Under the pieces are notes generated by a model. The model ran no database searches and was not told the DNA's origin. It saw only the letters and a list, made by a program, of their open reading frames with translations. A program made the translations under genes and the position numbers. A stretch of 64,000 bases of DNA from Pyrinomonadaceae bacterium (GTDB taxonomy: Bacteria > Acidobacteriota > Blastocatellia > Pyrinomonadales > Pyrinomonadaceae). Positions 1,330-61,899 of this stretch are shown in pieces. Each line of letters starts with the position of its first letter. Position 1 is the first letter of the stretch. The stretch spans positions 2,951-66,950 of the forward strand of contig DASVXV010000163.1 of assembly GCA_036392495.1 (NCBI GenBank), given 5' to 3'.

Positions 1330-1405
1330 CGTAAATCGTGAATCGTAAATCGTGAATCGTCGAACGGTTTTCCTCTATTTACGATTCACGATTTACGATT
1401 TACGA
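1330..1405. repeat. heptad-stem hairpin, family A (CGTAAAT/CGTGAAT units)
   Basis: Left arm cgtaaatcgtgaatcgtaaatcgtgaatcgt, loop cgaacggttttcctct, right arm atttacgattcacgatttacgatttacga. Several pairing registers are possible because of the 7-nt periodicity. Confidence 0.9.
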
Positions 1406-1407
1406 CT

Positions 1408-2292
1408 TCATTTCCCCCATCGCAGTTTTTCGCGCAGGACCTCGAAGTAGTTTCTGTTCTTGGGCTGCACGATCTTAAACGTCGTCAGACTTTTTCTGAT
1501 GTGGACATGATCTTCGATGCGGATCGGCACGCCGACCTGTCCGTCTAAGGTCAGGACCACTTCCTCTCTTGGCGTCCTGAGACGCAGTTCGATCAAGGCA
1601 TCGTCGGGAACCACGAGCGGGCGGTCCGAGAGCGTGAAGGGGCAGATCGGCGTGATCACCAGCGCGTTCATCGAAGGATAGATGACGGGACCGCCCGCCG
1701 AAAGATTGTAGGCGGTCGAGCCCGTCGGCGTGGAGATGATCAGGCCGTCGGCGCGAAAGCCGCTGATGAGCTGCCCGTTCATACTCGCTTCGATCTCGAT
1801 GATGCGGGCCAGGGCAGACTTGTTGATGACGACGTCGTTGAGCACACGACTGTGCATCAGGATCTCTTCTCCGCGGTAGAGGTCAACTGTGAGGCGGACG
1901 CGCGTGTCTATCCGATAGTCCCCATTGAGAATTGATTCGAGCGCCGCCTCCATCTCTTCGACGCGGAACTCCGCCAGATAGCCGAGCGTTCCGTAGTTGA
2001 TGCCGACCACGGGCACGTCGTAATCGCCCATCATGCGCGAAGTGCCGATCATCGTCCCGTCGCCGCCGAGCACGACGATTAAGTCAACCTTGGCGGCCAG
2101 TTTTTCGGGCTCCACGATCTCAAGCGCGCAGCCGGTTTCGCCCTCGATGCGCTCGCGGTCGAGATCAGGGGTGCCGACCAGTGTGATTCCGTGCGCGTTG
2201 AGCCACTCGACTAAGTGGCAGGTAGTCTTCAGCGCCTCCGGGTGATTCGGTTTGACGACCACACCGACGCGACCGATAGCTGAGTGTTCCAT
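1408..2292 (-). CDS. nadK: NAD(+) kinase
   Basis: GGDGTMIG and STPTGSTAYNLSAGGPV motifs over the full length. ATG at 2292 preferred over the TTG at 2295. Confidence 0.93.
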   Translation of the reverse strand: MEHSAIGRVGVVVKPNHPEALKTTCHLVEWLNAHGITLVGTPDLDRERIEGETGCALEIVEPEKLAAKVDLIVVLGGDGTMIGTSRMMGDYDVPVVGINYGTLGYLAEFRVEEMEAALESILNGDYRIDTRVRLTVDLYRGEEILMHSRVLNDVVINKSALARIIEIEASMNGQLISGFRADGLIISTPTGSTAYNLSAGGPVIYPSMNALVITPICPFTLSDRPLVVPDDALIELRLRTPREEVVLTLDGQVGVPIRIEDHVHIRKSLTTFKIVQPKNRNYFEVLREKLRWGK

Positions 2293-2426
2293 CAATCAAC
2301 CTGTGCTCGTGGAAAACGATTGGGCGCGCTTCACTTCGGATTAAAAGCCGCGTCCGGTTCGCTGCTCGCCAAAGTTAGGGCCAACATCTTTAATTACTTG
2401 TGATTACTTTAAAAGAGACGGCTCGG

Positions 2427-2456
2427 ATGATACTCGCCCGCGCTTTTCAGTGTCAA
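2427..2456 (-). promoter_or_regulatory. sigma70-like promoter upstream of nadK
   Basis: Minus strand reads TTGACA (2456-2451), 18-nt spacer, TATCAT (2432-2427), about 130 nt upstream of the nadK ATG. Confidence 0.4.
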
Positions 2457-2522
2457 CGGAGAGAAATTCTGAAAGTTTGAGAGGCGACGCAGGCTGTGAG
2501 TGCCCGCGCCAGTTTTCGGTCC

Positions 2523-2563
2523 AAAAAGATTGCGCCGCTTCCAACGAGTGAAAGCGGCGCAAC
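2523..2563 (-). terminator. intrinsic terminator (minus strand)
   Basis: Minus strand reads UUGCGCCGCUU-loop-AAGCGGCGCAA (11-bp GC-rich stem) followed by UCUUUUU. Confidence 0.7.
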
Positions 2564-3045
2564 CTTTAATCCCTAAAACTGCCGAAGCAATTCAGGGGAT
2601 AATTTGGCAACAACGCATGTACACGCAAGTTGTTGCCGATTTATATTCCGGACAAGAGGCTGGCGGTCAGCCGGACTTCCGGTCGGCACGCGATCCGTTT
2701 TCACGAACCTCGCTCGGCCCTTGCGGGCCAGCGGTGCCATTTGGTTTTTGTTGTGGTGGCTTTTCCTCCACCGCCGGTTACGTCCCCGGCAACGAGGCTC
2801 AAGTCCGAAGACTCAAGCGACTTGCTACTTCAAGGCTGATCATTTCCTCGAAAGCGCGACTGCGTTTTTATCCGCTGCCGCTCAAGATGAGAGCCTTGCG
2901 ACCCTCACTTGAAGCCAAGCCTTTCGGCTTCAGCGCGAGGTGTAAAAGCTGCAACAGCCGCCTGTTGCCACTCTCAAACGGCGCGTCACCGCACCGCTTG
3001 CCTCTCCTCTCGCTGGTCACGATGCCCGTGAGCACCGCGACGAGG
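2523..3045 (-). ncRNA. candidate ~520-nt structured non-coding RNA, family unknown
   Basis: Lies between its own promoter (3080-3052) and terminator (2563-2523) in a ~950-bp gap without a credible ORF. Multiple helices are capped by UUCG or GNRA tetraloops only when read on the minus strand. One 9-bp stem (2797-2818) has two G.U pairs on minus that would be A.C mismatches on plus. Confidence 0.45.
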
Positions 3046-3051
3046 GTGTGG

Positions 3052-3080
3052 GTTATACGCTGGCGCGCCGAACAAGTCAA
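3052..3080 (-). promoter_or_regulatory. near-consensus sigma70 promoter (minus strand)
   Basis: Minus strand reads TTGACT (3080-3075), exactly 17 nt, TATAAC (3057-3052). Confidence 0.55.
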
Positions 3081-3249
3081 GCAGAAAATACTTTAAGAGT
3101 TGAAGCGAGTGGTTGTGGAAAAATCTGTGGAAAACTTGGACCGTTTGAAACCCTCAGTAAAACCGCAGCGGACGTGAGAACAGGAAGAGATTTGTCCTGG
3201 AAAAGGCGGCCGAAAATCAGAAAAAATTTTCGCCTCTCTGCCGATATTT

Positions 3250-4431: not shown

Positions 4432-5177
4432 TTCTCGGCGCGCTCGTAGAGCGCAAGGAATTCCACGTTACCGTCTCCCCCGCGAATCGGAGATTCAATC
4501 GTCCCGCACGCGCGAAGGCCCATTTTTTCCGCCGCCCGATTCACCTCCTCGATGACGCGCGCGTGCTTCGCAGGGTCCTGGACGATGCCGCCACGCCCGA
4601 CCTCACCGCGCCCTACTTCAAACTGAGGCTTGATGAGCGTAACGAGCCGCGCCCCTTCAGTCAACAGCGGAACAATAGCGGGCATGACTTTCGTCGCCGA
4701 GATGAAAGAGACATCCATCACAGCCAGGTCAAATCTCTCTTCGAAATCGTCCGGGGTTAAATACCGTGCGTTGACGCCCTCCCTCACTTCGACGCGCGGG
4801 TCATTTCGCAGACGCCAATCTATCTGATTGTGCCCGACGTCCACAGCGACGACGCGTCGCGCGCCGTGCTGCAACAGGCAATCCGTAAAGCCTCCCGTCG
4901 AAGCGCCGACGTCCAGGCAGAGCAGGCCCGTCACGTCCAGACCGAATTCTCGCAGAGCCGCCTCCAATTTCAGGCCGCCGCGCCCGACGTAGCGTGACGC
5001 CGGATCATCCGCGCCTTTCAAGCGAATCACGGCATCTGGGCCGAACATCTCCGAAGGTTTTAGCACGCGCTGCTCATCGGCCAGCACCACGCCCGCCATC
5101 ACGAGCGCCTGCGCCTTTGTCCGCGACGAGGCCAGCCCACGCTCCACCAGAAGCTTGTCAATGCGCTCACGCTTCAT
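4428..5177 (-). CDS. tlyA: TlyA family 16S/23S rRNA (cytidine-2'-O)-methyltransferase
   Basis: N-terminal S4 domain (RIDKLLVERGLASSRTKAQALV) plus FtsJ-type methyltransferase (LDVGASTGGFTD). Confidence 0.9.
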   Translation of the reverse strand: MKRERIDKLLVERGLASSRTKAQALVMAGVVLADEQRVLKPSEMFGPDAVIRLKGADDPASRYVGRGGLKLEAALREFGLDVTGLLCLDVGASTGGFTDCLLQHGARRVVAVDVGHNQIDWRLRNDPRVEVREGVNARYLTPDDFEERFDLAVMDVSFISATKVMPAIVPLLTEGARLVTLIKPQFEVGRGEVGRGGIVQDPAKHARVIEEVNRAAEKMGLRACGTIESPIRGGDGNVEFLALYERAEK

Positions 5178-5270
5178 AAAAAGAGCGTAAATCGTAAATC
5201 GTGAATCGTAAATAGAGAAAAGCCGCTCTCGTCTATTTACGATTCACGATTTACGATTTACGCTCTTTTT
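5178..5270. repeat. heptad-stem hairpin, family A, 38-bp perfect stem
   Basis: aaaaagagcgtaaatcgtaaatcgtgaatcgtaaatag / 17-nt loop / exact reverse complement. A5 and T5 flanks. Directly abuts the tlyA ATG (5177). Confidence 0.95.
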
Positions 5271-5272
5271 AC

Positions 5273-5986
5273 TTACGGCTGCCTGCCTTCAAAGATGTCC
5301 CGGATACGGTCAATCTCCCTCTGGGCGCGCTCGATCCCGCGTGGGACGTCTATGGCCTCATCATCATCCCTCTGGCGACGGCGGCGCTCTCTTCTCTCTT
5401 CTCGCCTGCGCTCTCTTTCAGCCTGCCTCTCTTCAAGGACTTCGTCCGCGTCATCGTCCTTCTCCGCTTTCTCCTGCTTTTTATCGCGGACCACCGGAGG
5501 AGGAGGCGGCGGCGTGACTTCATCCCTCTTCTTTTCGTTGCGCGCGGTGCGCTCAAGCTCCTCGTCCTTCTCCACGGCGGCAGTCTCCGCAGGTTTCTCC
5601 GGGACGGAAGCGCTGGGTTGCGGCACAGGCGTCGGCTCGACTGTTGGTCCGGAGCCCACACTTTCAACCGGAGCCGCCGGCGCGCTCGCGGCCGGAACGG
5701 TCGTCGCCGCCGCGCTGCGGTTCCTGTAAATGCCTATTACGAGCCCAGCCGCGGCGCCAACGCCGACGGCGGTCAGAACAATCAGGGCGAGCAGGGCGTG
5801 CCGTTTCCAGAAGGGTCTTGTAGCGTGCCCGGCATAATCGCCGTGGCGTATTTGGGAGGTCTGTTGTTCCGCGAGCGGAATGACAGGTCGGGCCGTCATC
5901 GTCGCCTCAGCATCGAAGTGCGGCGACCGCAGAGGCTCGTTCGGATCAACTCCGGTGGGGATGATAATTCTTCGTCTTTCGTTCAT
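5273..5986 (-). CDS. hypothetical single-pass membrane protein with Pro/Ala-rich and highly charged C-terminal region
   Basis: One hydrophobic segment (ALLALIVLTAVGVGAAAGLVIGI), then a PAxP-rich stretch and an E/R/K/D-rich tail. No family recognised. Confidence 0.6.
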   Translation of the reverse strand: MNERRRIIIPTGVDPNEPLRSPHFDAEATMTARPVIPLAEQQTSQIRHGDYAGHATRPFWKRHALLALIVLTAVGVGAAAGLVIGIYRNRSAAATTVPAASAPAAPVESVGSGPTVEPTPVPQPSASVPEKPAETAAVEKDEELERTARNEKKRDEVTPPPPPPVVRDKKQEKAEKDDDADEVLEERQAERERRREERRERRRRQRDDDEAIDVPRGIERAQREIDRIRDIFEGRQP

Positions 5987-6541
5987 CTCTTTTCCGCTGT
6001 CCGATTATTGCAAACAAATTATGGCCCGGGTTCCGCCGTCCTGATTGCAAGATCAAGGCCACACGCGCGCTTGAATTTTCCGCGGGAGAGTTAACTATTG
6101 AGAAGTCAACGCGCCTGCCCGACAGATTTTTGATGCGGACAGAACCCGAGACGTCCGCCCGTCGTCCCCAAATTGAACGATACGGTGCATAAAAGCGATG
6201 CGCCCGCCCATATCAAACGCTAGGACGGGCACACTCCTAAGCTTCGGCGGAAACCTAATTAACGGAAACCTCCGCCATCTTTGCGCCAATGCCTGGTAAT
6301 CGGATGTATTTTCCGGCCCCATCGCGGACTGTTACTTTGTATGCTCCGTGTGTATTTCCGGGTAGGCCAAAATCTTTTGGGTAACATGCGCTAAATTGCA
6401 CGCGCTCGCTGCCTTAGGTTTACTACTGAGGGGCTCGGTGCTCGACGCAGAGATTTTATGGTAAGCTCTGCGCCCAGGGCTAAAGCTTGCCGGTGAAAGG
6501 AAGCTCAACACGCCTGCCCCGCCTCGTTTCGGCTTTAGAGT

Positions 6542-7282
6542 ATGAATAGTCCTTCCATACAGCCCCCCGGAGCGACCCATTCCAGGGCCTCCACGCCTGT
6601 GAATCGCATCCTGGAGGCCCTGCCCCGGGAGGAGTACGCGCGCCTGCTACCACTGCTATCGCCTGTGCGACTTCAGAAGGGCAGGGTGCTGTGGGAGGCG
6701 GGAGGCGAAATCCGCCACGCCTACTTTCTGACCGGCGGCATGGTCGCAATGCTCTCCGTCACATATGATCAGGAGACCGTAGAGGTCGGTATGATCGGCA
6801 GCGAAGGGATTGCCGGGGTCGCCGCCCTTCTCAGGTGCGAGTCGGCGCCCTATCGGGTGGTGGTTCAGCTTTCGGCCGGCGCCCTTAGGATAAGCGTCCG
6901 GGCGCTGCGGGCGGAGTTCTCCAGGGGCGGGCGGTTACAGGACTTGACGCTACGCTACACGCACGCCCTGCTCACGCAGGTCGCGCAGTCGGCCTCCTGC
7001 CACCGCTTTCACACGGCTGAGCAGAGACTCTGCCGCTGGCTCCTCACGAGCGCAGACCGCGCCGGGAGCTATACCCTCCCGCTCACGCAGGAGTTCCTGG
7101 CCCAGATGATCGGCGTCCCGCGCACGAGCGTCACGTCGGCTGCCGTCAAGCTCCAAGACCGAAGGCTCATCGGCTACCGGCGCGGCAGAATAACCCTGCT
7201 CGACCGGCGCGGGCTGGAGTCTACCTCGTGCGAGTGCTATCGTGCTGTCACCGCCATTCTCGACTGCCACTTGGCCGCTTAA
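6542..7282 (+). CDS. Crp/Fnr family transcriptional regulator
   Basis: Cyclic-nucleotide-binding-like N-terminal domain plus C-terminal HTH (EFLAQMIGVPRTSVTSAAVKLQDRRLI). Confidence 0.85.
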   Translation: MNSPSIQPPGATHSRASTPVNRILEALPREEYARLLPLLSPVRLQKGRVLWEAGGEIRHAYFLTGGMVAMLSVTYDQETVEVGMIGSEGIAGVAALLRCESAPYRVVVQLSAGALRISVRALRAEFSRGGRLQDLTLRYTHALLTQVAQSASCHRFHTAEQRLCRWLLTSADRAGSYTLPLTQEFLAQMIGVPRTSVTSAAVKLQDRRLIGYRRGRITLLDRRGLESTSCECYRAVTAILDCHLAA

Positions 7283-7578
7283 CTCCCCTCCCGAAAAAAT
7301 CTTCAGTAATGTCGAATCTTGACAGACGGTGAGGTGAGCATCGTGTATTCTGATTAGATTTATTCTCCCCGCGCGGCACGGCTGTGCGGTTGGCAAGGCG
7401 GTAGGCGGCAAGTGCCTTACTCACGCCCCCGCCGCCGCAACCCCGGACCGCATGTAACGGGCTGGTAGTTTGATCCTGCGAAACCTCGCACGGCCCATCT
7501 ACCATTGCCTTCAAGTAAAACCCTCGCGCACGTGCCCTACAGGGCGCTGTGCTTTACCTACAAGGAGATTTATTCGCA

Positions 7579-8112
7579 ATGAAACGTTTTCTAGCAGCAG
7601 TTCTCTTCGCTGCCGCCGTCTCGCTCTTGTTCAGCATCCCGGCCGCGGCACAGGGCACGCGCACCTTCTCGCTCACTCGGGGTGACACGATGGCCCCGGC
7701 TTCCCCTGGCCTCGTCGACGCCAGCGGCGCGACTACGTACCACGGCGGCCTCGTCGCCGGCCAGGTGGACGGCGTCGCCGGCAACACGTTCACCCTCTCG
7801 CTCACCTTTCGGAGCACGGGCGTAATCGACCCGGTGGCAGGCATCTACGGCGGGGAGATCGTTTCCCCGTTTAGCAGTTTCGTAGTGTCCCAGGTGTCAG
7901 GGCGCAAGAGCGTCTCGACCTCGGGGATGATTGACGCTGGCACAGTCACCTATCGCCTCACGTCGTATGGTATGGCCGATATCATCAGCGTCACCTCAGG
8001 AAACCTGACCGTCTGGGAAGGCAAGAATAAGAGTCGCAGAGCGGTCGGCTACGGCACGCTCAACTACGGCACGGCCGCAGAGGGCTCGGGCACGATGGTG
8101 CTCTACTTCTGA
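7579..8112 (+). CDS. secreted hypothetical protein
   Basis: ATG at 7579 after AGGAGA. Signal peptide MKRFLAAVLFAAAVSLLFSIPAAAQ. No family recognised. Confidence 0.65.
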   Translation: MKRFLAAVLFAAAVSLLFSIPAAAQGTRTFSLTRGDTMAPASPGLVDASGATTYHGGLVAGQVDGVAGNTFTLSLTFRSTGVIDPVAGIYGGEIVSPFSSFVVSQVSGRKSVSTSGMIDAGTVTYRLTSYGMADIISVTSGNLTVWEGKNKSRRAVGYGTLNYGTAAEGSGTMVLYF

Positions 8113-8143
8113 CGCGGGCCGCACGCCGATTAAGAGGGTAACT

Positions 8144-8182
8144 GAGGGCGGGGGCTTTGTGAGCCACCCGCCCTCTTACTTT
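8144..8182 (+). terminator. intrinsic terminator-like hairpin
   Basis: gagggcggg-loop-cccgccctc followed by ttactttc, downstream of the 8112 stop. Confidence 0.5.
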
Positions 8183-8289
8183 CGGCAGCTGCGAGAATAG
8201 GTCGGCCTAAATGAGGCGGAGCCGAATCCAGAAATCGTCCGACTTCTGATTTACGTAGTTACTATAAAAGATGCGATTGCCCTGGTCGC

Positions 8290-10224
8290 TTATGCCTTCT
8301 CCGAAAAACGCCTTGAGGAGACTGGGGCGAATCCGAGGTTACTTTGTTCCACACAACTTTTGACACGCGTATAAATGCCGTCGGCATCGAGGCCGTATTT
8401 GGCGAGCAGGAGCTTCGCGTCCCCATGTGTGACGAGGCGGTCGGGAATACCCATCCGAATGACTCTGACCTGATCGAGCAGGCCGTTCTCTTCCAAAAGC
8501 TCCATCACGGCCGAGCCGAAGCCGCCCGCAAGATAAGCTTCTTCGATTGTGACGATCAGACGCTTCGTGCGCGCCAGCGCCAGCAGCAAGCTGGCATCCA
8601 ACGGTTTGACGAAACGCGCGTTAACGACCGTCGTTTCGATTCCATCTTTTGACAAATTCTCGGCCGCCTGTAGCGACGGATGCACCATCGCCCCGTAGGC
8701 TACAATTGCCACGTCGCCGCCGCTATCGCGCAGGATTTCGCCCTTGCCTATTTCCAGGAGCTGCGGCTCGCGGCTGATGTCCACGCCGATACCATTCCCG
8801 CGCGGATAGCGTAGAGCCGCAGGCCCGTTGTGCTCGATTGCCGTCCACAGCATGTCGCGCAACTCCCCCTCGTCCTTCGGGGCCATCAAGATCATGTTCG
8901 GCATCGGCCTGAGATAAGCTATGTCCAGGAGCCCGTGATGCGTCGGCCCGTCAGGCCCGGCTACGCCCCCGCGGTCCAGAGCGAAGGTGACGTCCAGGTT
9001 CTGGATGCAGATGTCGTGCATCACCTGGTCGAAGCCGCGTTGCAGGAAAGTCGAATAGATCGCCGCGACTGGCTTCAAGCCTTCGCAGGCCATGCCGCCC
9101 GAGAACGTGACGGCGTGCTGCTCCGCTATCCCGACGTCAAACGCCCGCTCCGGAAATTTCTCCAGAACCGTATCCACGCCCGTCCCGTCTGGCATCGCCG
9201 CCGTCAGCGCGACGATACGCTCATCTTTCTCCATCAACTCACACATGGTCCTGCCAAAAACGGCGGTGTAAGTCGGAACTTTCGTGGACGACTTGATGGG
9301 TTTACCGGTTTTAATGTCGAAGGGCCCCGTGGCGTGCCAGGCGTAATAATTTTTTTCTAAGGCCGGATAGCCTTTGCCTTTGGTCGTCAGCGCGTGGACG
9401 ATGACGGGTCCATCCTTGACCTGCTGCGCCTCGCGCAGAGCGGCCACCAGAGCGCGCGGGTTGTGACCGTCAACATAGCCTATGTACTTGAAGCCGAGCT
9501 CGCTGGTCAGCGCGCCCGGCAAGACCGCGGCGGCGAGCGCGTCCTTGACCGTCTTGGCGGCTAGATGAAGGCGTTCGCCTAAGGCCGGAATCGAAAGCAG
9601 TGTTTCCCCCACCTCGTCCTTGAAGCGGTGATAACCTTGTGCCTGCCGCAGGCGGTTGAGATAGCCCGTGAGCGCGCCGACGGCGGGCGCGATAGACATC
9701 TCGTTGTCGTTCAAGAGCACGATCAGGCGCGTCTTCAAGTGCCCGGCCTGATTGATCGCCTCCATTGCCATGCCGCCGGCCAAGCTGGCGTCGCCGATGA
9801 CGGCGCAGACGTGGTGCTTCTCTTTTTTGCGATCACGCGCCACGGCCATCCCCAGCGCAGCAGAAATTGAAGTCGAAGCGTGTCCCGCGCCGAAGGTGTC
9901 GTACTCAGACTCGTCGCGCTTGAGAAATCCGCTGATCCCGCCGTACTGCTTGATTGTCGGCAAAGCGTCGCGCCGCCCCGTCAGGATTTTATGCGTGTAG
10001 GCCTGATGACCCACATCCCAAACAATGCGATCAGTCGGCGTGTCGAAAGCGTAATGCAACGCCACGGCCAATTCGACCGCGCCGAGGCTGGCCCCCGTGT
10101 GACCGCCCACGCGCGACATCGTTTCCAGAATGTACTCGCGAATCTCGTCAGCGACTGTCTGCAACTGTTGCGGCGCAAGGCGGCGCAAATCTGTGGGCGA
10201 GTTAATATCTTGTAGGAGTTTCAT
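8290..10224 (-). CDS. dxs: 1-deoxy-D-xylulose-5-phosphate synthase
   Basis: 644 aa, full-length match to the DXS pattern (GGHTGASLG, HQAYTHKILTGR, GDASLAGGMAMEA). Confidence 0.95.
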   Translation of the reverse strand: MKLLQDINSPTDLRRLAPQQLQTVADEIREYILETMSRVGGHTGASLGAVELAVALHYAFDTPTDRIVWDVGHQAYTHKILTGRRDALPTIKQYGGISGFLKRDESEYDTFGAGHASTSISAALGMAVARDRKKEKHHVCAVIGDASLAGGMAMEAINQAGHLKTRLIVLLNDNEMSIAPAVGALTGYLNRLRQAQGYHRFKDEVGETLLSIPALGERLHLAAKTVKDALAAAVLPGALTSELGFKYIGYVDGHNPRALVAALREAQQVKDGPVIVHALTTKGKGYPALEKNYYAWHATGPFDIKTGKPIKSSTKVPTYTAVFGRTMCELMEKDERIVALTAAMPDGTGVDTVLEKFPERAFDVGIAEQHAVTFSGGMACEGLKPVAAIYSTFLQRGFDQVMHDICIQNLDVTFALDRGGVAGPDGPTHHGLLDIAYLRPMPNMILMAPKDEGELRDMLWTAIEHNGPAALRYPRGNGIGVDISREPQLLEIGKGEILRDSGGDVAIVAYGAMVHPSLQAAENLSKDGIETTVVNARFVKPLDASLLLALARTKRLIVTIEEAYLAGGFGSAVMELLEENGLLDQVRVIRMGIPDRLVTHGDAKLLLAKYGLDADGIYTRVKSCVEQSNLGFAPVSSRRFSEKA

Positions 10225-10314
10225 TTCGGTTTCGTATTGTAGCGCGGGAACAGCGGTTTTGCCATCTCACGAAATATTCACAATTCGAGAGCATTTGCTT
10301 CTCCTTCAGCACAT

Positions 10315-10716
10315 TCAACGGTGTGTGAAATTTTCCAGAATGCCGTAGACAGTGATGGTCGCCAAAAGCAGCGAACTCAACACCACGACAGACACGTTCC
10401 AGCCATGCACCCTTTTATCAGGGCTGCTTAAGGTGACGTCGGCGTCCCCTCTGGCCTTGAGCCTGAAGATGGCGTACAGGTTCAAGGCCAGGGCTGCGAG
10501 CAACCCGCCAAAAAAGAGAAGCGGCGTGATGACCAGGTTGAGTATTCGTAGACGCAGCGGGTCCGCAAAGAAGACCGCGAGCGGATCAAAGAGCAGCCCC
10601 CAGCCGAAACCGTACTTCAAGGCGGCGGCGCTCACGAAGTACAAAGGGGGCAGGCTGAGAATGAGGCCGAGAACCGCCAGCCTTTTCGACGAAGACCGCT
10701 TCACAGATGCCCTCAT
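10315..10716 (-). CDS. hypothetical integral membrane protein
   Basis: 133 aa with 3-4 hydrophobic segments. Confidence 0.55.
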   Translation of the reverse strand: MRASVKRSSSKRLAVLGLILSLPPLYFVSAAALKYGFGWGLLFDPLAVFFADPLRLRILNLVITPLLFFGGLLAALALNLYAIFRLKARGDADVTLSSPDKRVHGWNVSVVVLSSLLLATITVYGILENFTHR

Positions 10717-11018
10717 AGCAAAACCTCCCGCGAATCTCTTTCAGATAACCTTAGATTTCTCTTCTTGCTTTGTCATATAAAGCGCTTTATACAGCCAAAC
10801 CAGGGAAGAGTCAATCGAATTCTGGCCGTTGAAGTCGGGCGGGCCCGTTTTCGGATCGCGCGCGAGATTAATTCAGACCGCGGGCGCCGGGCGCGCGTCT
10901 AAAGGGCTGAGGTTACGGATAGCGATTTAACCGAAAGGCGCGGGGCGCTGGGAAAACTCTTTGGACGCACGCGCAACTCATAATTCAATCAGAATCCATT
11001 CAAGGAGTAGCGGAAATA

Positions 11019-11540
11019 ATGTCTTCGCAAAGAAAACTGAGGGGCACGAGCCTGTTGCTCGGCCTCATCTTCATCCTGAGCACGGCTGCCTTTGCGCAGC
11101 AATCGTCTCCTGCCCCACAGCAGGAAGGCGGGACACAGCAACAACCACTGGGGCGCAGAAAAGGGATGCGTCACGGTCCGGGCAAAAGAGGTCACGGCGG
11201 AGTCCTCAGACTGATGAGCCGGCTCAACCTGACGGACGCCCAGCAACAGCAGCTTCGCGCCATCGAAGAGCGCTTCGAGGCGAGCATTAAGCCTCAGCGC
11301 GAGGAGATGCGCAGGCTTTTTGAGAGCAGTCAGGGCACGCCATTGAGCGCCGACGCGGAAGCTCGCGCTCGCGCCCTGCGCGCAGAGATGGGCCAAGCCA
11401 TGCGTGGGATGCGCGAGGAGATGCAAAACGTCCTGACATCCGAGCAGCGCGCGCAGCTTGAGCAACTCGTCAAAGAGCGCAAAGCCTTACACCAGGAGAG
11501 GCGTGGCCGTCGGCTGAACCGGCAGAACGACGATCAGTAG
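11019..11540 (+). CDS. Spy/CpxP-family periplasmic protein (LTxxQ repeats)
   Basis: Signal peptide plus LNLTDAQQQQL and LTSEQRAQL motifs. Confidence 0.7.
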   Translation: MSSQRKLRGTSLLLGLIFILSTAAFAQQSSPAPQQEGGTQQQPLGRRKGMRHGPGKRGHGGVLRLMSRLNLTDAQQQQLRAIEERFEASIKPQREEMRRLFESSQGTPLSADAEARARALRAEMGQAMRGMREEMQNVLTSEQRAQLEQLVKERKALHQERRGRRLNRQNDDQ

Positions 11541-11627
11541 AAAACTGCCATCATCAGCTTAAATCAGAAGCGGCATGGAAGGAGTTCACTTCCATGCCGC
11601 TTCTCTTCACCAACACCCCTCCGGTTC

Positions 11628-12053
11628 TTACCTTTTCTCAAAGCCTTCGACGAACTCACGTAACCGGTCCTCTATCTCGTCCCGCACGCGGCGAAAGACC
11701 ATTAGACGTGCCTCTTCATTCCCTGCTGCCGTCGCAGGGTCTTCAAAGCTCCAGTGAATGCGCTCAGTCTTTCCAGGAAAGACCGGGCACCTGTCGCGCG
11801 CGTTGTCGCAGACAGTAATCACGTAATCGAACTCCTGCCCCGCAAACTCGTCCACGGATTTCGAGCGGTGGCCCGAAATATCTATACCTCGCTCGCGCAT
11901 CGCTTCGATGGCCTGGGAACGAACATGGCTCGGCTCAACGCCCGCGCTCAAGACTTCAAAGCGCTCACCAGCCATGTGGCGCAACAAGCCCTCAGCCATC
12001 TGGCTGCGCGCGGAGTTTCCAGTGCAGAGGATCAGCACGCGCTTTTTCTTCAT
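11628..12053 (-). CDS. arsC: arsenate reductase, LMW-PTP (thioredoxin-coupled) type
   Basis: MKKKRVLILCTGNSARSQMAEG (CX5R P-loop). True ATG at 12053; the track ORF to 12341 is over-extended. Confidence 0.9.
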   Translation of the reverse strand: MKKKRVLILCTGNSARSQMAEGLLRHMAGERFEVLSAGVEPSHVRSQAIEAMRERGIDISGHRSKSVDEFAGQEFDYVITVCDNARDRCPVFPGKTERIHWSFEDPATAAGNEEARLMVFRRVRDEIEDRLREFVEGFEKR

Positions 12054-12763
12054 TTGTTTTCTCTCTTTCCCTCGTGCGGCATGACGACCGCCGACGCTTC
12101 TTTCGGTAACCGTGGAACGAGCCAGCGAAAGAGCGCCGTCGCAGCCGCCGCACCCGCAAGTTGCGCTATGATGAAGGCGGGCGCGTCCGCTGGCCTGATT
12201 CCAGCGAAAGTATCGCTCATCGTGCGTGCCAGAGTCACAGCAGGATTGGCAAACGAAGTTGATGAAGTGAACCAGTAGGCCGCCACTATGTACGCGGCGA
12301 CGGCGAAAGGTACTATTGATGCTCGTTGGCGTCGCGCGCATCCCCAGATCACAGCCAACAACCCGAACGTGGCGACAAACTCGCTCAACAGTTGAGAGGG
12401 GCCTGCGCGCACACGCTTTGACGCGAAGAAGATCGGCAACTCGAACATCAGATTCGCGCAGGCCACGCCGACAAATGCGCCTATAACCTGCGCGCCTACG
12501 TATGCTGGCACATCGCTCCAGGGAAGGCCGCCCTGCGAAGCGTCCGCCAATGTCACGGCCGGATTGAAATGCGCGCCCGAAATCGGCCCGAAGGTGAGAA
12601 TCAGGGCGCAGAGCGCAGCGCCGGTGGCAATCGTGTTAGCCAGTAAAGCTATTGCGACATTGCCACCGGCGAGCCGCTCGCCCATGATCCCGGAGCCGAC
12701 GACCGCAGCCAGCAGCATCATTGTCCCTAAGGCTTCTGCGGTCGCGCGCCGCGCCAGATCCAT
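12050..12763 (-). CDS. MIP/aquaporin family channel (AqpS-like, arsenic-locus associated)
   Basis: Two NPA boxes (HFNPAVT, FANPAVT). Overlaps the arsC start by 4 nt. Confidence 0.88.
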   Translation of the reverse strand: MDLARRATAEALGTMMLLAAVVGSGIMGERLAGGNVAIALLANTIATGAALCALILTFGPISGAHFNPAVTLADASQGGLPWSDVPAYVGAQVIGAFVGVACANLMFELPIFFASKRVRAGPSQLLSEFVATFGLLAVIWGCARRQRASIVPFAVAAYIVAAYWFTSSTSFANPAVTLARTMSDTFAGIRPADAPAFIIAQLAGAAAATALFRWLVPRLPKEASAVVMPHEGKRENK

Positions 12764-12797
12764 CTCCCTTTTCTCTTTCGACGGGAAAGTTCAATAC

Positions 12798-13322
12798 TTA
12801 TGGCGTGACTGAGACGGGCGCGGTCGCCCCGCAACAGGACGCGGCCACTCCGGCTGTCTCCACGGCTTCCGCGATTTCAGTTTCCGCCACCTTCGTCCCG
12901 CACTCGCAGGGCGCGGTCTCTGGCAGGTTGTCTTCCAGGACCACGAAGACCTCCCACTCGTTGCCGTCCGGGTCACGCACCCAGGTCTTGTCCTGCACGG
13001 CATAGCAGCAGTTGGTCTGCATCTCGTCGCGCGTCTTGAGGCCAGACTCCATCCACTTCTGACGAGTCCTTAGCACATCCTCCGTGGAGGCGACCTGAAT
13101 CCCCAGGTGCGAGAGCGCGCCTCGCTCTCCGAACGGGACTTCGTTGAGCGTTAAGTTGAGCGGCGGGTTCTCGACATTAAACTTGGTGTACCCGTTGCGC
13201 ACCTTGCTCGGCTCAATCCCCAACATCTTCCTGTAAAACTCCGTGCTGCGCTCGACGTCACGGACATTCAAGGCCAGATGCGCCTTCAGCGCCTGCACCG
13301 TTTTTGCCTCTGTCTTCTCCAT
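12798..13322 (-). CDS. arsI: ArsI/CadI-family VOC metalloenzyme (putative C-As lyase)
   Basis: Glyoxalase/VOC fold with vicinal cysteines (QTNCCYAVQDK) and a Cys-rich tail. ATG at 13322 after GAGGAG. Confidence 0.8.
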   Translation of the reverse strand: MEKTEAKTVQALKAHLALNVRDVERSTEFYRKMLGIEPSKVRNGYTKFNVENPPLNLTLNEVPFGERGALSHLGIQVASTEDVLRTRQKWMESGLKTRDEMQTNCCYAVQDKTWVRDPDGNEWEVFVVLEDNLPETAPCECGTKVAETEIAEAVETAGVAASCCGATAPVSVTP

Positions 13323-13351
13323 TTCGAATCTCCTCAAACCGACCGATTTTT

Positions 13352-13373
13352 CATATTCGTTAAAGCGAATATG
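13352..13373. promoter_or_regulatory. candidate ArsR operator palindrome
   Basis: catattcg-ttaaag-cgaatatg (8-bp perfect arms) in the divergent arsI/arsR intergenic region. Confidence 0.4.
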
Positions 13374-13426
13374 AGCACACAATACACCTGCCAGACATAT
13401 CTGTCAAGGCATATTTGTTCCAGGTG

Positions 13427-13435
13427 TGCTAGAAT
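13427..13435 (+). promoter_or_regulatory. extended -10 element (TGcTAGAAT) implying a leaderless arsR mRNA
   Basis: TAGAAT ends 6 nt before the arsR ATG (13442). No SD and no good -35. Confidence 0.35.
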
Positions 13436-13441
13436 GCGCGC

Positions 13442-13843
13442 ATGAGTCGAGCTAAGGGCACTTTTGGCGATGAGCTGCTGTTTTTTCGTGCGCTGGCGGA
13501 TCACACGCGGCTGCGGCTTCTCAATCTGATGGGCGAGACGGAGGTCTGCGTCTGCTTCTTCGTAGCGGTCCTGGGGATTAATCAGCCGAAGATTTCTCGC
13601 CATCTGGCTTACCTGCGACGCGCAGGGATGGTCGCCGTCAGGCGCGAAGGCAAGTGGATGCACTACCGCATCACAGAGCCCGCTGCGCCGCACGCGGCGC
13701 GAATCTTCAGCGAGGTGCGCGCCTGGCTCAAAGAGGATGCGGACATGCGGCGCGACCGCGAGCGCCTGATCAAAGTCTGCTGCGCGCCGCAGCCGCCCGT
13801 CCAACTGCGCGGAGCGCCACGACCCGTGAGTCTCTCGGTCTAA
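13442..13843 (+). CDS. arsR: ArsR/SmtB family metalloregulator
   Basis: ALADHTRLRLLNLM...EVCVCFF...NQPKISRHLAYLRRAG winged HTH with a CVC metal site. Confidence 0.9.
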   Translation: MSRAKGTFGDELLFFRALADHTRLRLLNLMGETEVCVCFFVAVLGINQPKISRHLAYLRRAGMVAVRREGKWMHYRITEPAAPHAARIFSEVRAWLKEDADMRRDRERLIKVCCAPQPPVQLRGAPRPVSLSV

Positions 13844-13862
13844 ACCCCCGGGGTTTTGCGCC

Positions 13863-13890
13863 TTGACAATCTCGCCTCGCAGATTAGAAT
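13863..13890 (+). promoter_or_regulatory. sigma70-like promoter for tRNA-Ser
   Basis: TTGACA (13863-13868), 16 nt, TAGAAT (13885-13890). The tRNA starts at 13909. Confidence 0.5.
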
Positions 13891-13908
13891 AACTCTTCGC
13901 ACGCTCGC

Positions 13909-13999
13909 GGAGATGTGGCCGAGTGGCTGAAGGCGGCGGTTTGCTAAACCGTTATGGGTCAAAAGCCCATCACAGGTTCGAATCCTGTCATCTCCGCCA
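13909..13999 (+). tRNA. tRNA-Ser (anticodon GCU), encoded CCA
   Basis: Acceptor GGAGATG/CATCTCC, anticodon stem GCGGT/ACCGT with loop TTGCTAA, long variable arm, T-arm ACAGG-TTCGAAT-CCTGT, then GCCA. Confidence 0.92.
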
Positions 14000-14007
14000 G
14001 AATTTGA

Positions 14008-14080
14008 AACGATGAACGCGGAACGATGAACGATGAATGTGGGATTAGAATTCATCGCTCATCGTTCCGCGTTCATCATT
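14008..14080. repeat. heptad-stem hairpin (GAACGAT units), 31-bp stem with 2 mismatches
   Basis: aacgatgaacgcggaacgatgaacgatgaat / gtgggattaga / attcatcgctcatcgttccgcgttcatcatt, between tRNA-Ser and gltX. Confidence 0.9.
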
Positions 14081-14088
14081 AGAAGAAC

Positions 14089-15657: not shown

Positions 15658-15689
15658 GTTCGTACTAATTTTGTTTGAGGAGCACAGCA

Positions 15690-16340: not shown

Positions 16341-16461
16341 GGCAAGCGCACACAATTTGACGCCCCTTTGATTTTGAAGACGGCAAGCGCGACGGCAAGT
16401 CAGTGAAGGGACGAGCCGGCCGTCGTACTCTCAGACACAACTATTCGGAAAGGTAGCGAAC

Positions 16462-17031: not shown

Positions 17032-17035
17032 TAGC

Positions 17036-17114
17036 GCGTAAATCGTAAATCGTGAATCGTAAATGGATGAAGACCGCTTTTCTCTATTTACGATTCACGA
17101 TTTACGATTTACGC
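17036..17114. repeat. heptad-stem hairpin, family A, 29-bp perfect stem
   Basis: gcgtaaatcgtaaatcgtgaatcgtaaat / ggatgaagaccgcttttctct / exact reverse complement, between convergent genes. Confidence 0.95.
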
Positions 17115-17510: not shown

Positions 17511-17627
17511 TGGAGTTAAGCAGCGTTTGCCGCCGCTTGCGATGAATGGCTTAAGGAGCGAGGACGTGAAAGAAGCGAGGCATCAAAGGCGTTTTTGCGT
17601 TCAGGACCTTTGACGCCCGCCGGTTCT

Positions 17628-17847: not shown

Positions 17848-17853
17848 GGCCGC

Positions 17854-45298: not shown

Positions 45299-45299
45299 T

Positions 45300-45395: not shown

Positions 45396-45401
45396 CATCT
45401 T

Positions 45402-46112: not shown

Positions 46113-46165
46113 CAAGTGACGAGCAGAGACGGTTTTTCTTGTCACCTGTCACTCGTCACCTGTTA
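46094..46165. repeat. heptad-stem hairpin (GTGACRA units) whose left arm overlaps the last codons of phoB
   Basis: gtaacaggtgacgagtgacaagtgacgag / cagagacggtttttcttg-type loop / cttgtcacctgtcactcgtcacctgttac. Confidence 0.85.
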
Positions 46166-46172
46166 CGGTTCT

Positions 46173-47858: not shown

Positions 47859-47917
47859 CTTTTGTTCTCCTGAAATTTCCCGAATCCTAGCATAGAAATA
47901 GCGCACACGCTTCCTTC

Positions 47918-47968
47918 GCGGCTTTGCGTCTTTGCGAGATACAATTTCACGCCAAGACGCAAAGCCGC
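47918..47968. repeat. 15-bp perfect hairpin in the ettA / ATPase divergent intergenic region
   Basis: gcggctttgcgtctt / 21-nt loop / aagacgcaaagccgc. Confidence 0.85.
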
Positions 47969-48134
47969 TAAGAAAACCCGGCCCCTTTTGTTTCATGCGT
48001 GAAAAATTGTTCCATTCTCGTGTTAAGTGTGCTACACTGCCCGCGTTTTCGGGAAAGGGCCGAAGAGTTGGGCGGGTAACGGCTATGGTTTTACCCGTAA
48101 AAAATCGCAACCTAGCTGATGAGGAGTTTAAGTG

Positions 48135-49217: not shown

Positions 49218-49227
49218 GCGAATACAA

Positions 49228-49290
49228 AATTAAAAAGCAAAATGGAAGACTGAGAGCAACGCTCGCTATCTTCCATTTTGCTTTTTAATT
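49228..49290. terminator. 22-bp perfect AT-rich hairpin (bidirectional terminator-like)
   Basis: aattaaaaagcaaaatggaaga / 19-nt loop / tcttccattttgctttttaatt. Confidence 0.7.
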
Positions 49291-49299
49291 TATCCCCTC

Positions 49300-52842: not shown

Positions 52843-52912
52843 GTCAGTACCGCCTGCGGTAGCGGGCGGGTATTGCGCACCGGACCCGCCCGCTACCGCA
52901 GGCGGTACTGAC
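52843..52912. repeat. 29-bp perfect GC-rich palindrome
   Basis: gtcagtaccgcctgcggtagcgggcgggt / attgcgcaccgg / exact reverse complement. Each arm also contains an internal mini-palindrome (taccgc-ct-gcggta). Confidence 0.92.
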
Positions 52913-55484: not shown

Positions 55485-55556
55485 AGCCCGCGTGAGCGGG
55501 CGACAGACGATCATTTGTCAGCATCTGTCGCCCGCTCACGCGGGCTTTATTGTTTT
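55485..55556 (+). terminator. REP-like 23-bp perfect hairpin plus T-tract
   Basis: agcccgcgtgagcgggcgacaga / 16-nt loop / tctgtcgcccgctcacgcgggct followed by ttattgttttt. Confidence 0.65.
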
Positions 55557-55572
55557 TAACTGTTGGTGTGAC

Positions 55573-55629
55573 CCCGTGCTCGCCTGCGGCTTCGCACGGG
55601 GCTTTAGACGGTCGCCCGCATTCGCGGGC
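55573..55629. repeat. REP-like two-hairpin unit (minus orientation)
   Basis: ccccgtgc...gcacgggg and gcccgc-attc-gcgggc. Same architecture as the units at 36594-36760. Confidence 0.8.
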
Positions 55630-60270: not shown

Positions 60271-60420
60271 TGAGCCGGCTTCGCCCGGGCACGTGCGAGC
60301 AGATTGCTCATCGCATGACTATATCCTGCCGCCCGATTAAGGGCTAAGAGATTCTGGAACTCAGCGTCGCCTGAGGCGTCTTTCTAACGCCAGTATCTTT
60401 TTTCGAAAAGGGGTAAATAA

Positions 60421-60637
60421 CCCAAGTTGCCAGTTATCAATTGCCACTAGCTTCAGCTAGTGGTTCAGGGTGCTCTAGTTCTTTCGGCTTGAGCCGAACT
60501 GTGAGGCTCAAGCCGAAAGGAACTGGATGTTATGTGTCATTCGGCTCAAGCCGATCCTTTTCAACCATCTGTGTCCACTAGCTGAAGCTAGTGGCAATTG
60601 AAATGATTTCCAAACAGCTATAACTGGCAACTTGGGT
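60421..60637. mobile_element. MITE-like nested palindromic element with 45-bp terminal inverted repeats and 7-bp direct-repeat flanks
   Basis: TIRs are perfect 19 + 26 bp (aacccaagttgccagttat + caattgccactagcttcagctagtgg) against 60575-60638. TAAATAA occurs at 60414-60420 and 60638-60644. The interior carries three copies of tcggc-ttga/tcaa-gccga. Confidence 0.5.
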
Positions 60638-60645
60638 TAAATAAG

Positions 60646-60909
60646 ATGAAGAGATCTCTCTTGATTCTCTGTCTCATCGCTCTCGTGTCTCTGATCGGGT
60701 GGACAAGCTACGGGCAGAAACAGAAATCTTCCAGAACCTCCTGGGAATATTTAGTCGGACTGGAAGGGGGTGGGGCTAATAATCAGATAAACTTACGCGC
60801 GCTAGGAGCGGAGGGCTGGGAACTGACCGCTATAACGACAGAGGACGAGATCATCAATGGCGATCAACATATTCCTCTCAAGACCTACTACTTCAAGAGA
60901 CCGAAGTAG
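60646..60909 (+). CDS. small secreted DUF4177-like protein
   Basis: Signal peptide, then SWEYL...LRALGAEGWELTAI. Confidence 0.6.
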   Translation: MKRSLLILCLIALVSLIGWTSYGQKQKSSRTSWEYLVGLEGGGANNQINLRALGAEGWELTAITTEDEIINGDQHIPLKTYYFKRPK

Positions 60910-61079
60910 AAAGGGCGTAAACTCTCGCATGGGACCCTGGCGGTGGGAGCGACAAAAAGGGTCCTGCCGCCACGTATCAGCGTGTCCTAAACAAAGTTGC
61001 CGGGTCAATTCAAATCGCGCATAATGCGAGGTGCGCCGTAGGTTTTAAGCACCCTCTCTAAAATCAGAGGAGGATTTGA

Positions 61080-61253
61080 ATGCCAACAGAGACCCCACCG
61101 CCCTATTTCCCGCAGAACCAGCTCTCGCCCCCGGATGAGAGCCGGGCCAGAAAAACCAAGCTCGCGCTCCTCGGATGCCTCGTCCTGCTGCTGCTCTTCC
61201 TGGGCGGCACGGTTCTGGGGGTGTATTACCTGATTCGCTGGCTCTTCTTTTAA
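61080..61253 (+). CDS. small Pro-rich single-TM protein (57 aa), below the ORF-track size cut-off
   Basis: ATG 6 nt after GAGGAGG. MPTETPPPYFPQNQLSPPDESRARKTKLALLGCLVLLLLFLGGTVLGVYYLIRWLFF. Confidence 0.5.
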   Translation: MPTETPPPYFPQNQLSPPDESRARKTKLALLGCLVLLLLFLGGTVLGVYYLIRWLFF

Positions 61254-61304
61254 CGAAGCGGTCCTCCGCCCTGGCCTGGACCGGAGGCAGCTCAAGCACA
61301 ACCT

Positions 61305-61790
61305 TCACTCTGCGTCCTTCGTCGTCTCCAGCAGTCGCTTCATCGTGACGAGCACGCCCAGATGATAGGCGTTGTGGTCCGCGACGAGCAGCGCCTCGCG
61401 CAACACGGTCTGCCCGTCGCCGTGCGGGATTCGCGCGTAGAGGTCGGTCGCCGGGTCCATTACCAAAGCAATCATCTCTTTGAGGTCCCGGCGAAAAGCT
61501 TCGACGGTCTCATTCCAACCGGCAGCGTCCGGCGCAACGTCCTGAGCGGGCCAATAGCCCTCAGGCCACTTCGGCGAGACGTGACTGGCGTTGCGGCTGA
61601 ATTCGAGTATGTCCCACTGCGCGATCCTCATGTGTTCGACGACGGCCCACGCCGTATAAGGAAGGTTTTCAACCTTTTGATTGACAGCCTCAATGGGAAA
61701 GTCCTTGACGACCGACTCGAAATCTATATGCGCGCCGCCCCCGTCGAGCAAATAGAGTAGCTGCTCACGAAGCGCCTTGTCCTGATCCAT
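61305..61790 (-). CDS. DinB family protein
   Basis: Four-helix DinB_2-like protein with His triad candidates (EHMRIAQWD, DHNAYHLG). Confidence 0.78.
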   Translation of the reverse strand: MDQDKALREQLLYLLDGGGAHIDFESVVKDFPIEAVNQKVENLPYTAWAVVEHMRIAQWDILEFSRNASHVSPKWPEGYWPAQDVAPDAAGWNETVEAFRRDLKEMIALVMDPATDLYARIPHGDGQTVLREALLVADHNAYHLGVLVTMKRLLETTKDAE

Positions 61791-61822
61791 CTTTTCTCCT
61801 TCCCGGTTAGTAAATCAAGAGA

Positions 61823-61899
61823 TGCTAGCCACAGATAAGCGCAGATAAACGCAAATCCAATCATTTCTAATCTGCTTCCATCCGCGTTCATCTGTGGCT
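61823..61899. repeat. imperfect heptad-type hairpin
   Basis: ctagccacagataagcgcagataaacgc ... gcttccatccgcgttcatctgtggctaag (about 22 of 29 paired). Confidence 0.6.

Follow-up and report, generated by a model that had tools for sequence, protein, structure and literature searches.

Hairpins with tandem-heptamer arms at gene junctions of a Pyrinomonadaceae chromosome and their probable kinship to intervening-sequence-like elements

Heptanucleotide tandem repeats (STRR) have been known since 1990 and the intervening sequences of 23S rRNA since about the same time, and the protein family PF05635 is a large one with solved structures; to our knowledge, neither function nor origin has been established for any of the three. 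STRR have usually been presented as direct arrays; those in RNase P RNA extend a helix, and direct heptamer arrays are known in cyanobacteria and Beggiatoaceae. The 23S rRNA intervening sequences consist of a long stem that is cut by RNase III and encloses an S23p open reading frame (ORF), with some forms lacking the ORF (Leptospira, Coxiella; PMC4990558). The Coxiella intervening sequence has GACAGAT heptamers at the RNase III site, in two to three copies depending on the strain (PMC4990558). In Xanthomonas, arrays of about four GGGAATC heptamers form 70-75 inverted pairs per genome at an average of 28 nt from the 3' end of the upstream ORF; their position is conserved between species with varying length, and they were read as putative G-quadruplexes (PMC4692102). 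Here we describe hairpins whose arms are tandem 7-nt repeats in a 64,000-nt stretch of DNA from a Pyrinomonadaceae bacterium (contig DASVXV010000163.1), which we call the window. We are inclined to read these hairpins as gene-less members of a family of intervening-sequence-like palindromic elements, probably forming RNase III-type stems in mRNA. Linking STRR, intervening sequences and PF05635 leads to a concrete, testable model, and since the elements hold a large share of Pyrinomonadaceae gene junctions, they bear on operon expression and on assembly quality.

The window is ordinary chromosome with a GC content of 56-62%, carrying dxs, gltX, a uvrD-like helicase gene, ybaB-recR, pstSCAB-phoU-phoB and ettA. 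It corresponds to bases 2933-66932 of a 76.5-kb contig from a soil metagenome (JGI 3300014487 Ga0182000_10000016), which was the only match to exact-protein look-ups for close strains, and its EttA is identical to a protein that NCBI assigns to a Pyrinomonadaceae metagenome-assembled genome. The nearest genomes belong to Pyrinomonadaceae/Blastocatellia (Acidobacteriota), the best relative having 80% amino-acid identity. Rfam at gathering threshold matched only a tRNA-Ser in the whole window, which contains no rRNA. The hairpins resemble 23S rRNA intervening sequences in that terminal inverted repeats form a long stem, in that a PF05635 gene can lie in the loop (here only at 29091-29572), in the existence of ORF-less forms, and in the heptamers at the Coxiella RNase III site. 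However, the elements described here lie between protein-coding cistrons or after a tRNA gene and not in rRNA helices, both of their arms are heptamer arrays, and gene-less copies number about 20 per 64 kb; whereas RNase III excises the intervening sequences, cleavage here would follow by analogy. STRR are likewise tandem 7-nt arrays, mostly intergenic and of many unit types, and IVP (PF05635) genes of cyanobacterial plasmids are bracketed by such arrays, but 90% of the arrays in our lineage sample are inverted pairs at stop codons.

The Xanthomonas pairs are similar in the number of units per arm (median 3.9 here), in lying near the end of the upstream ORF (median 4 nt here) and in having conserved sites, and one of their arrays adjoins the IVP gene XCC0516, although the link to IVP genes is not drawn in PMC4692102. 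They have one G-rich unit family, compared to at least 10 families in the window, most of which are unable to form G-quadruplexes. This bears on the explanation that the repeats are regulatory sequences forming G-quadruplexes, as was proposed for the heptamers of Xanthomonas and Nostoc. The GGGGTCR family (22262, 29095) has at least four G-runs, and GGGAATC repeats form G-quadruplexes in vitro (Rehm et al., PMC4692102). The CGTAAAT, GGAGTCT, GATGAGT, GTGACRA, AAGGNAA and GAACGAT families, however, have the same properties otherwise and no G-runs, and we regard this explanation as highly improbable. The suggestion of a sequence-only reading of the window that heptamer repeats had not been described as inverted pairs forming hairpins holds only in part: inverted pairs are on record for Xanthomonas (PMC4692102), and heptamers are found at the RNase III site of the Coxiella intervening sequence (PMC4990558). 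In the searchable literature, which is incomplete, we found no paper on such hairpins or heptamers in Acidobacteria and no general link of PF05635 to flanking heptamer arrays beyond the Coxiella case.

The heptamer-armed hairpins are real and far beyond chance expectation. Tandem Repeats Finder (TRF) returned about 45 period-7 rows in the window, and TRF and an inverted-repeat scan found hairpins where the sequence-only reading had placed them. Our own scan, with one scoring rule for all periods, gave 23 tandem arrays at period 7 and none at the other periods in the range 4-13, and dinucleotide shuffles of the window gave 0 arrays. The best arm period was 7 in 16 of the 23 strong hairpin clusters. 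We then used a lineage sample of 360 kb of Pyrinomonadaceae/Blastocatellia DNA, consisting of the window and 16 loci, and an outgroup sample of 662 kb from 34 loci of other taxa, and counted an inverted partner if it was within 160 nt of the array. The lineage sample contained 72 period-7 arrays, 65 of them with an inverted partner, compared to 5 arrays of period 8, 3 of period 9 and 0 of periods 4-6 and 10-13. Only nine period-7 arrays were seen in the other taxa, six of which came from one Chloroflexia metagenome-assembled genome (MAG), and one of the nine was paired. Heptamer elements were present in 10 of 13 Pyrinomonadaceae loci and practically absent from the 34 loci of other taxa; one Blastocatellia locus (L051) had 0 arrays. 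These counts support inverted heptamer hairpins as a lineage trait, and roughly 1000 hairpins per Pyrinomonadaceae genome are expected if the density of the window holds.

The sequence-only reading had named a genome-wide lack of period-7 enrichment as what would refute it; in the window and in the lineage sample, period 7 is clearly enriched. The stronger wording that the period is always 7 does not hold, as 47911-47975 has 8-nt units and 61819-61907 and 28593-28650 have 10-nt units. The hairpins were said to number more than 20, and we count about 17-20 heptamer elements, several of which are partial, solo or split (28445, 29091/29540, 31511, 35371, 36537).

The anatomy and placement statistics below rest on 45 gene-less hairpins. 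Arms have a median length of 27 nt (3.9 units) and whole elements one of 76 nt; arms range over 17-40 nt, loops over 11-30 nt and stems over 25-40 bp. The folding energy of the more stable strand has a median of -51 kcal/mol and ranges from about -24 to -77, and 95% of the stem pairs are Watson-Crick. The 5' arm is rich in purines and has more G than C in 42 of the 45 hairpins, and the 3' arm is rich in C and pyrimidines. Since a palindrome is identical on both strands, this polarity from 5' purine to 3' pyrimidine belongs to the element. Copies of Family A (CGTAAAT/CGTGAAT; 1329-1405, 5177-5271, 17032-17118 and 43612-43688) have in common their arms and the 3' half of the loop, G(G/C)TTTTC(C)TCT, and in the alignment of copies the homology ends exactly at the arm ends. 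Family B (GGAGTCT; 19191-19276, 41652-41751 and 45300-45395) has a common apical core, GTCAAAG...CTTTTGAC. The alignment of copies confirmed the earlier claim of paralogous loops within a family, including the Family A motif, and the hairpins can be regarded as a real superfamily with a constant period and with loops paralogous inside each family. The arms have no terminal motif in common. We dropped the relatedness of units between families as an argument, because any two heptamers match within 2-3 changes after rotation.

The hairpins closely follow the ends of genes. The spacing to the preceding stop codon is 4 nt in the median and within +/-10 nt in 30 of 44 cases. The context is tandem for 30 hairpins, convergent for seven and "none" for eight, the last comprising the hairpin after tRNA-Ser and cases where our rough gene caller failed. 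In tandem contexts the hairpin often spans the whole gap up to the next ATG, which lies 0-20 nt after the 3' arm, an arrangement kept in 7-13 species. In each of the seven species that were compared, recR begins 0-7 nt downstream of the 3' arm, and the amidohydrolase start is 3-15 nt after it in most of 14 species. Neither of these two starts has a Shine-Dalgarno sequence, compared to GGAGA/AGGAG 6-9 nt upstream of other genes of the same genomes. Five starts in the window, namely 29579 (recR), 19187 (amidohydrolase), 44639 (phoU), 45402 (phoB) and 41756 (pstC), follow a very stable stem at a distance of 0-6 nt and lack a Shine-Dalgarno sequence, and the same is seen in orthologues from 7-13 species. 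The hairpins also bear on start-codon annotation, as several starts without a ribosome-binding site abut a stem. One possibility is that stems abutting both stop and start codons couple translation across the closed hairpin.

A position directly after stop codons, including those of convergent pairs, and after a tRNA gene would also suit ordinary (bidirectional) intrinsic terminators whose stems are incidentally repetitive. Such a terminator has a short GC-rich stem of about 5-14 bp, a loop of 3-8 nt and then a U-tract, at the end of a transcription unit. Inverted repeats after stops are a general signature of bacterial terminators (PMC13155455), and the sequence-only reading had seen many copies with A-tract and T-tract flanks, likening them to bidirectional intrinsic terminators. 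We found such flanks in a minority only (5177, 30913, 49227), and the 8 nt after the stem contain a mean of 2.5 T compared to 1.7 expected, which is not a U-tract. The canonical pattern of stem, short loop and T-run had 26 matches in 28000-47900, none of which is a heptamer hairpin, and such sites were not enriched (26 vs 20.3 +/- 4.7). Stem and loop lengths are not those of terminators either. The location at the end of a transcription unit would fit the convergent hairpins at 17032, 30194 and 46091, but not the four hairpins between cistrons of pstSCAB-phoU-phoB or the element between ybaB and recR. Many hairpins are inside operons where the next ATG is too close to leave space for a promoter, so transcription must read through them. 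The likeness to terminators does not hold up on these counts, and we consider this explanation unlikely.

The arrays at 29095-29125 and 29540-29572 connect the superfamily to known elements. The array at 29091 noted by the sequence-only reading is there, but it is not a separate hairpin: together with the array at 29540 it makes up a single gene-enclosing element (29091-29572) between ybaB and recR, each array being one arm. These inverted arms are about 415 nt apart, the 5' arm (GGGGTCG/GGGGCCA) being 3 nt after the ybaB stop and the 3' arm (GGCCCCT) 6 nt before the recR ATG. The loop of this split hairpin contains a plus-strand ORF (29142-29513) that matches Pfam 23S_rRNA_IVP with an E value of 7e-38 and bAvd-like with 3e-10, and matches PDB 2GSC (Xanthomonas XCC0516) with 4e-28. 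Its GC content at third codon positions (GC3) is 0.47, compared to about 0.75 in neighbouring genes. The sequence-only reading missed the PF05635 gene in this element, through which the superfamily is tied to elements of the intervening-sequence type. In six related species, the ybaB|recR junction holds a plain gene-less heptamer hairpin.

We scanned metagenomes and obtained 80 loci with close relatives of the window IVP protein (66-89% identity), of which 68 were testable under the stricter rule of at least 150 nt on both flanks. An inverted repeat brackets the ORF in 51 of these 68 loci, and 50 of the 51 repeats are heptamer-periodic; control placements of the same length in the same loci were bracketed in 10 of 1642 cases (74% vs 0.6%). 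The bracketed elements occur in at least 17-25 different genomic contexts with a constant order of host stop, 5' G-rich array, spacer with a ribosome-binding site, IVP ORF, 3' C-rich array and host ATG. We compared the arms of 13 distinct orthologues of the ybaB|recR element. Compensatory double changes appear in 8 of 27 stem columns, and 311 of 351 cells are paired, compared to a maximum of 308 in 1000 permutations. The IVP ORF is intact in 23 of 23 orthologues, with a median dN/dS of 0.12. An IMG/VR sample gave 46 diverse homologous loci (35-58% identity, GC 0.28-0.71), 30 of which have period-7 brackets of highly varied units and three more have units of about 8 nt. Plasmid IVP genes have period-7 brackets in Nostoc, Anabaena, Calothrix and Riemerella, and brackets with units of about 8 nt in Gemmatirosa, Picosynechococcus and Leptolyngbya. 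A supplementary table of Rehm et al. (PMC4692102) places a GGGAATC array at 6 nt from bccP, where it overlaps with the start region of XCC0516. Across phyla, PF05635 genes are strongly associated with inverted heptamer arrays. Some of the plasmid genes with inverted arrays are inside CRISPR-Cas operons (cas6|cas4, cmr2|cmr3) and one is between two ribonucleotide reductase subunit genes; these loci are L134 (Anabaena sp. 90 pANA02), L135 (Picosynechococcus PCC 7003 plasmid) and L133 (Nostoc edaphicum pNe_5).

This association has to be considered together with the explanation that the hairpins are a mutational by-product, in which slippage favouring 7-nt units and template-switch palindromes would produce them with no function, mobility or real tie to IVP genes. 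Polymerase slippage is said to favour 7-nt units (Mrazek 2007, as cited in PMC4692102). Several phyla have an excess of heptamer repeats, copy number differs between species, and stems that are largely Watson-Crick without strand bias are what a DNA-level process would give. Slippage alone, however, leaves the inverted pairing of 90% of the arrays unexplained, and the by-product explanation does not account for the fixed polarity, the placement at stop codons, the paralogy of whole elements with sharp borders or the association with PF05635. We find it hard to credit this as the source of the hairpins.

For at least two families, gene-less and gene-bearing elements have both site and unit family in common. 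Three related loci (L124, L072 and L070) have at the recR 3' junction a second and divergent IVP gene (Pfam E 1e-32), flanked by CAGAAGG/AAGGCAG arrays, and in a fourth (L117) the gene itself is present there. The window has at this junction the gene-less 30194-30286 with AAGGCAA units, and its gene-less 38684-38781 uses CAGAAGG. Units close to those of Family B, GTGGTCR and CAGAAGG bracket IVP genes in L184, L158, L167 and L171. In two other loci (L003 4214-4714 and L004 610-1092), an ORF of 160-166 aa on the opposite strand takes the place of the hairpin at the recR 3' junction. This large gap was ruled out as an IVP locus, as a hidden Markov model (HMM) search of it gave no PF05635 match.

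Comparison of orthologous intergenic regions, which had been called for, showed that sites stay occupied while units change, with presence and absence at phoU|phoB and co-varying arms. Five orthologous junctions have a long heptamer-armed hairpin in nearly every related species, with differing units; after the peptidase gene, for instance, the units are GGAGTCT, AGGGATG, GTTCAAG, AAGTTTC, AGTCCAA and AAGTCCC among others. The peptidase|amidohydrolase site (19191 in the window) has a long hairpin in 12 of 13 related loci, most with heptamer arms; the 1025-nt gap of L008 at this site was left out of folding. Junctions without a hairpin in the window mostly have no heptamer hairpin in other species as well. 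Several unit sets differ by 1-2 homogenised substitutions on a constant AGTC core, which fits concerted evolution within an orthologous hairpin. At pstB|phoU the GTGGTCR hairpin and its loop are kept in three species, at pstA|pstB three different families are found in the species compared, and at phoU|phoB two species have a 102-nt hairpin while a third has only 8 nt between the genes. Families also recur at different loci between species, such as Family A in L050, where unit order and loop are unchanged. That the same junctions are so often occupied in different species suggests usefulness or great persistence.

The reading that we prefer, namely gene-less members of an intervening-sequence-like family, starts from the anatomy, placement, lineage-wide distribution, site conservation and arm co-variation observed above. 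The element consists of two inverted arrays of about four heptamers forming a stem of 25-40 bp between a host stop and the next gene, and in its full form, of which 29091-29572 is an instance, it carries a PF05635 gene in the loop. Elements would be transcribed within host operons, where the long perfect stem could act as an RNase III substrate that cuts or punctuates the mRNA between cistrons, and the stem stubs left after cutting would protect 3' ends. Given that rRNA intervening sequences are excised by RNase III and that the stems here form long perfect duplexes in operon transcripts, we infer processing of the RNase III type or protection of 3' ends, either of which would explain tolerance or usefulness at intercistronic junctions. 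Constant period and polarity would be inherited from a common ancestral element and kept by slippage within arms and templated correction from arm to arm. Common descent is the simplest account of both.

Several observations weigh against this reading. RNase III processing of mRNA hairpins is only an analogy here. The sense RNA is more stable than the antisense in only 12 of 30 cases (12 vs 18) and there is no excess of G.U pairs on the sense strand (18 sense vs 17 antisense), so nothing points specifically to selection at the RNA level. A single IVP gene was seen in about 360 kb of Pyrinomonadaceae DNA, compared to about 65 paired arrays, and most hairpins have no gene-bearing partner nearby; a tblastn and HMM search of the earlier loci gave no further IVP gene, and the other window hairpins are all gene-less. 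Family A and GATGAGT have no IVP-bearing counterpart in the samples examined. The two forms may have arisen by loss of the gene from full elements or by its gain in hairpins that were already there. By eye, no target-site duplication was seen in the cases read, which had no direct repeat outside the arms, and the gene calls of window 4-26 kb and 36-58 kb contain no transposase domain.

Strand symmetry also raises the question of a role at the DNA level, with cruciform or hairpin sites serving gyrase or nucleoid proteins, as for BIME/REP, or acting as barriers to replication or supercoil diffusion. Pairing that is symmetric and Watson-Crick, a polarity that is a property of the duplex, and the regular dispersal of elements at gene ends would all agree with it. 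However, placement follows stop and start codons within a few nt, which suggests a constraint from transcription or translation, and the closest relatives of known behaviour, the rRNA intervening sequences, act as RNA. We consider a DNA-level role quite improbable.

The repetitive extragenic palindromic elements (REP) and their composites (BIME, REPIN) are alike in being abundant extragenic palindromes at gene ends and between cistrons, with family structure within a genome, but they have no tandem-repeat substructure; their conserved 5' tetranucleotide was not seen here, nor was their RAYT transposase in the gene calls of window 4-26 kb and 36-58 kb. REP elements can stabilise upstream mRNA. 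Miniature inverted-repeat transposable elements (MITE) have terminal inverted repeats, a target-site duplication and an autonomous partner that encodes a transposase; here, inverted arrays are common to gene-less copies and a gene-bearing partner, and PF05635 is not known as a transposase. IVP genes have host genes as neighbours, namely ybaB and recR in the window and further housekeeping genes or cas genes in other loci. The IVP protein belongs to the same four-helix-bundle, pentamer-forming family as Avd of diversity-generating retroelements (2GSC; PMC10053308), but no reverse transcriptase, template or variable repeat was found beside the IVP gene.

A wider proposal, which we offer tentatively and rather doubt, is that PF05635 proteins and inverted heptamer arrays constitute one widespread class of genetic element, with a protein that would serve to bind, build or spread the arrays. 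Five chains are present in each of the structures 2GSC and 2RLD, which fits a pentamer facing about 4-5 heptamers. Alternatively, the IVP protein with a reverse transcriptase in trans could add G-rich heptamers at both sides of a break, giving the fixed polarity. If the wider proposal were true, cyanobacterial STRR, Xanthomonas heptamer pairs, rRNA intervening sequences and Pyrinomonadaceae hairpins would be footprints of one element.

Along the window, the Family A hairpin at 1329 follows the stop of the NAD kinase gene (1408-2295, minus) by 2 nt and lies between tandem minus-strand genes, and the one at 5177, with an A-tract/T-tract base, fills another such gap. A GAACGAT hairpin (14008-14080) begins 9 nt past tRNA-Ser (13909-13999) and ends 8 nt short of the gltX ATG. 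The Family A copy at 17032 lies between convergent genes and the Family B copy at 19191 between the peptidase stop and the amidohydrolase ATG. The gene-less GGGGTCR hairpin (22262-22331) has the same unit family as the IVP-bearing element, and a long-range CAGAATC hairpin (28445-28533) is in a divergent intergenic region. The AAGGNAA hairpin at 30194 takes up exactly the space that separates the convergent stops of recR and of a PRTase gene, and a GATGAGT hairpin (30913-31006) between tandem minus-strand genes is followed by a GGAGA ribosome-binding site. A partial AAAAGGN array with a short inverted partner (31511-31564) lies in a divergent region; right after it, upstream of the gene at 31598, is a near-consensus match to a sigma-70-type promoter (31569-31597, TTGGCA-17-TATAAT, 11/12). 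A solo C/T-rich heptamer array (35372-35401) immediately follows a stop codon.

Another array after a stop codon, of the GGATTKC type (36537-36581), is related to a nested composite 2.2 kb off (38655-38808), in which the CAGAAGG hairpin (38684-38781) sits within outer arms of the GGATTTC type (38655-38683, 38783-38808). The first 21 nt of the array (36537-36557) are the exact reverse complement of 38786-38806, and this inverted match flanks a TPR-protein gene and a cluster of GC-rich palindromes. The pair may be a hairpin split by insertion or rearrangement. Nested hairpins occur also in L007. In the pst operon, the Family B hairpin at 41652 reaches from the pstS stop (0 nt) to within 4 nt of the pstC ATG, the Family A copy at 43612 is between pstA and pstB, and a GTGGTCR hairpin (44555-44634) is between pstB and phoU, with the same family and loop in L050 and L052. 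The Family B hairpin at 45300, between phoU and phoB, is present in L050 but not in L052, which has the 8-nt gap. A GTGACRA hairpin (46091-46170) lies between convergent phoB and ettA and overlaps the phoB 3' end, and a weakly heptameric AAAATGN hairpin with an A/T-tract base (49227-49291) is 9 nt after the stop of 48156-49217.

Other unit lengths were seen as well. Hairpins with arms of 10-nt units (61819-61907, CAGATAARCG; 28593-28653, CACGAAACSA) mean that tandem-repeat arms are not strictly heptameric. A family with 8-nt units (CTTTGCGN) occurs at 47911-47975 in the window, at 2893-2956 and 4277-4321 in L005 and at 9921-9985 in L007. Its polarity is reversed, with a pyrimidine-rich 5' arm, and in the window and L007 it lies upstream of genes and not after stop codons. 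The Chloroflexia MAG mentioned above (L045, an 11.3-Mb chromosome) has six heptamer arrays in 21 kb (4454-19945; GAATTGA, TTCACGT, AATCTCC), mostly solo, and no PF05635 gene was found in this stretch.

A second repeat class consists of GC-rich mini-palindromes, GCCCGC-N4-GCGGGC, with six exact copies compared to 0.04 expected. Their sites are 36670-36883, 55486-55629 and 52843-52912 in the window and 12713-12939 and 17416-17607 in L008. They are embedded in larger inverted structures, beside a perfect 29-bp inverted repeat at 52843-52912, and the class looks REP-like and unrelated to the heptamer hairpins. Finally, a composite palindrome at 60410-60640, which has no Rfam match and lies upstream of a small ORF (60646-60909), has three TTCGGCTTGAGCCGAA-type inner hairpins and a perfect 27-bp inverted repeat (60437-60463 / 60575-60601) within longer outer inverted arms.

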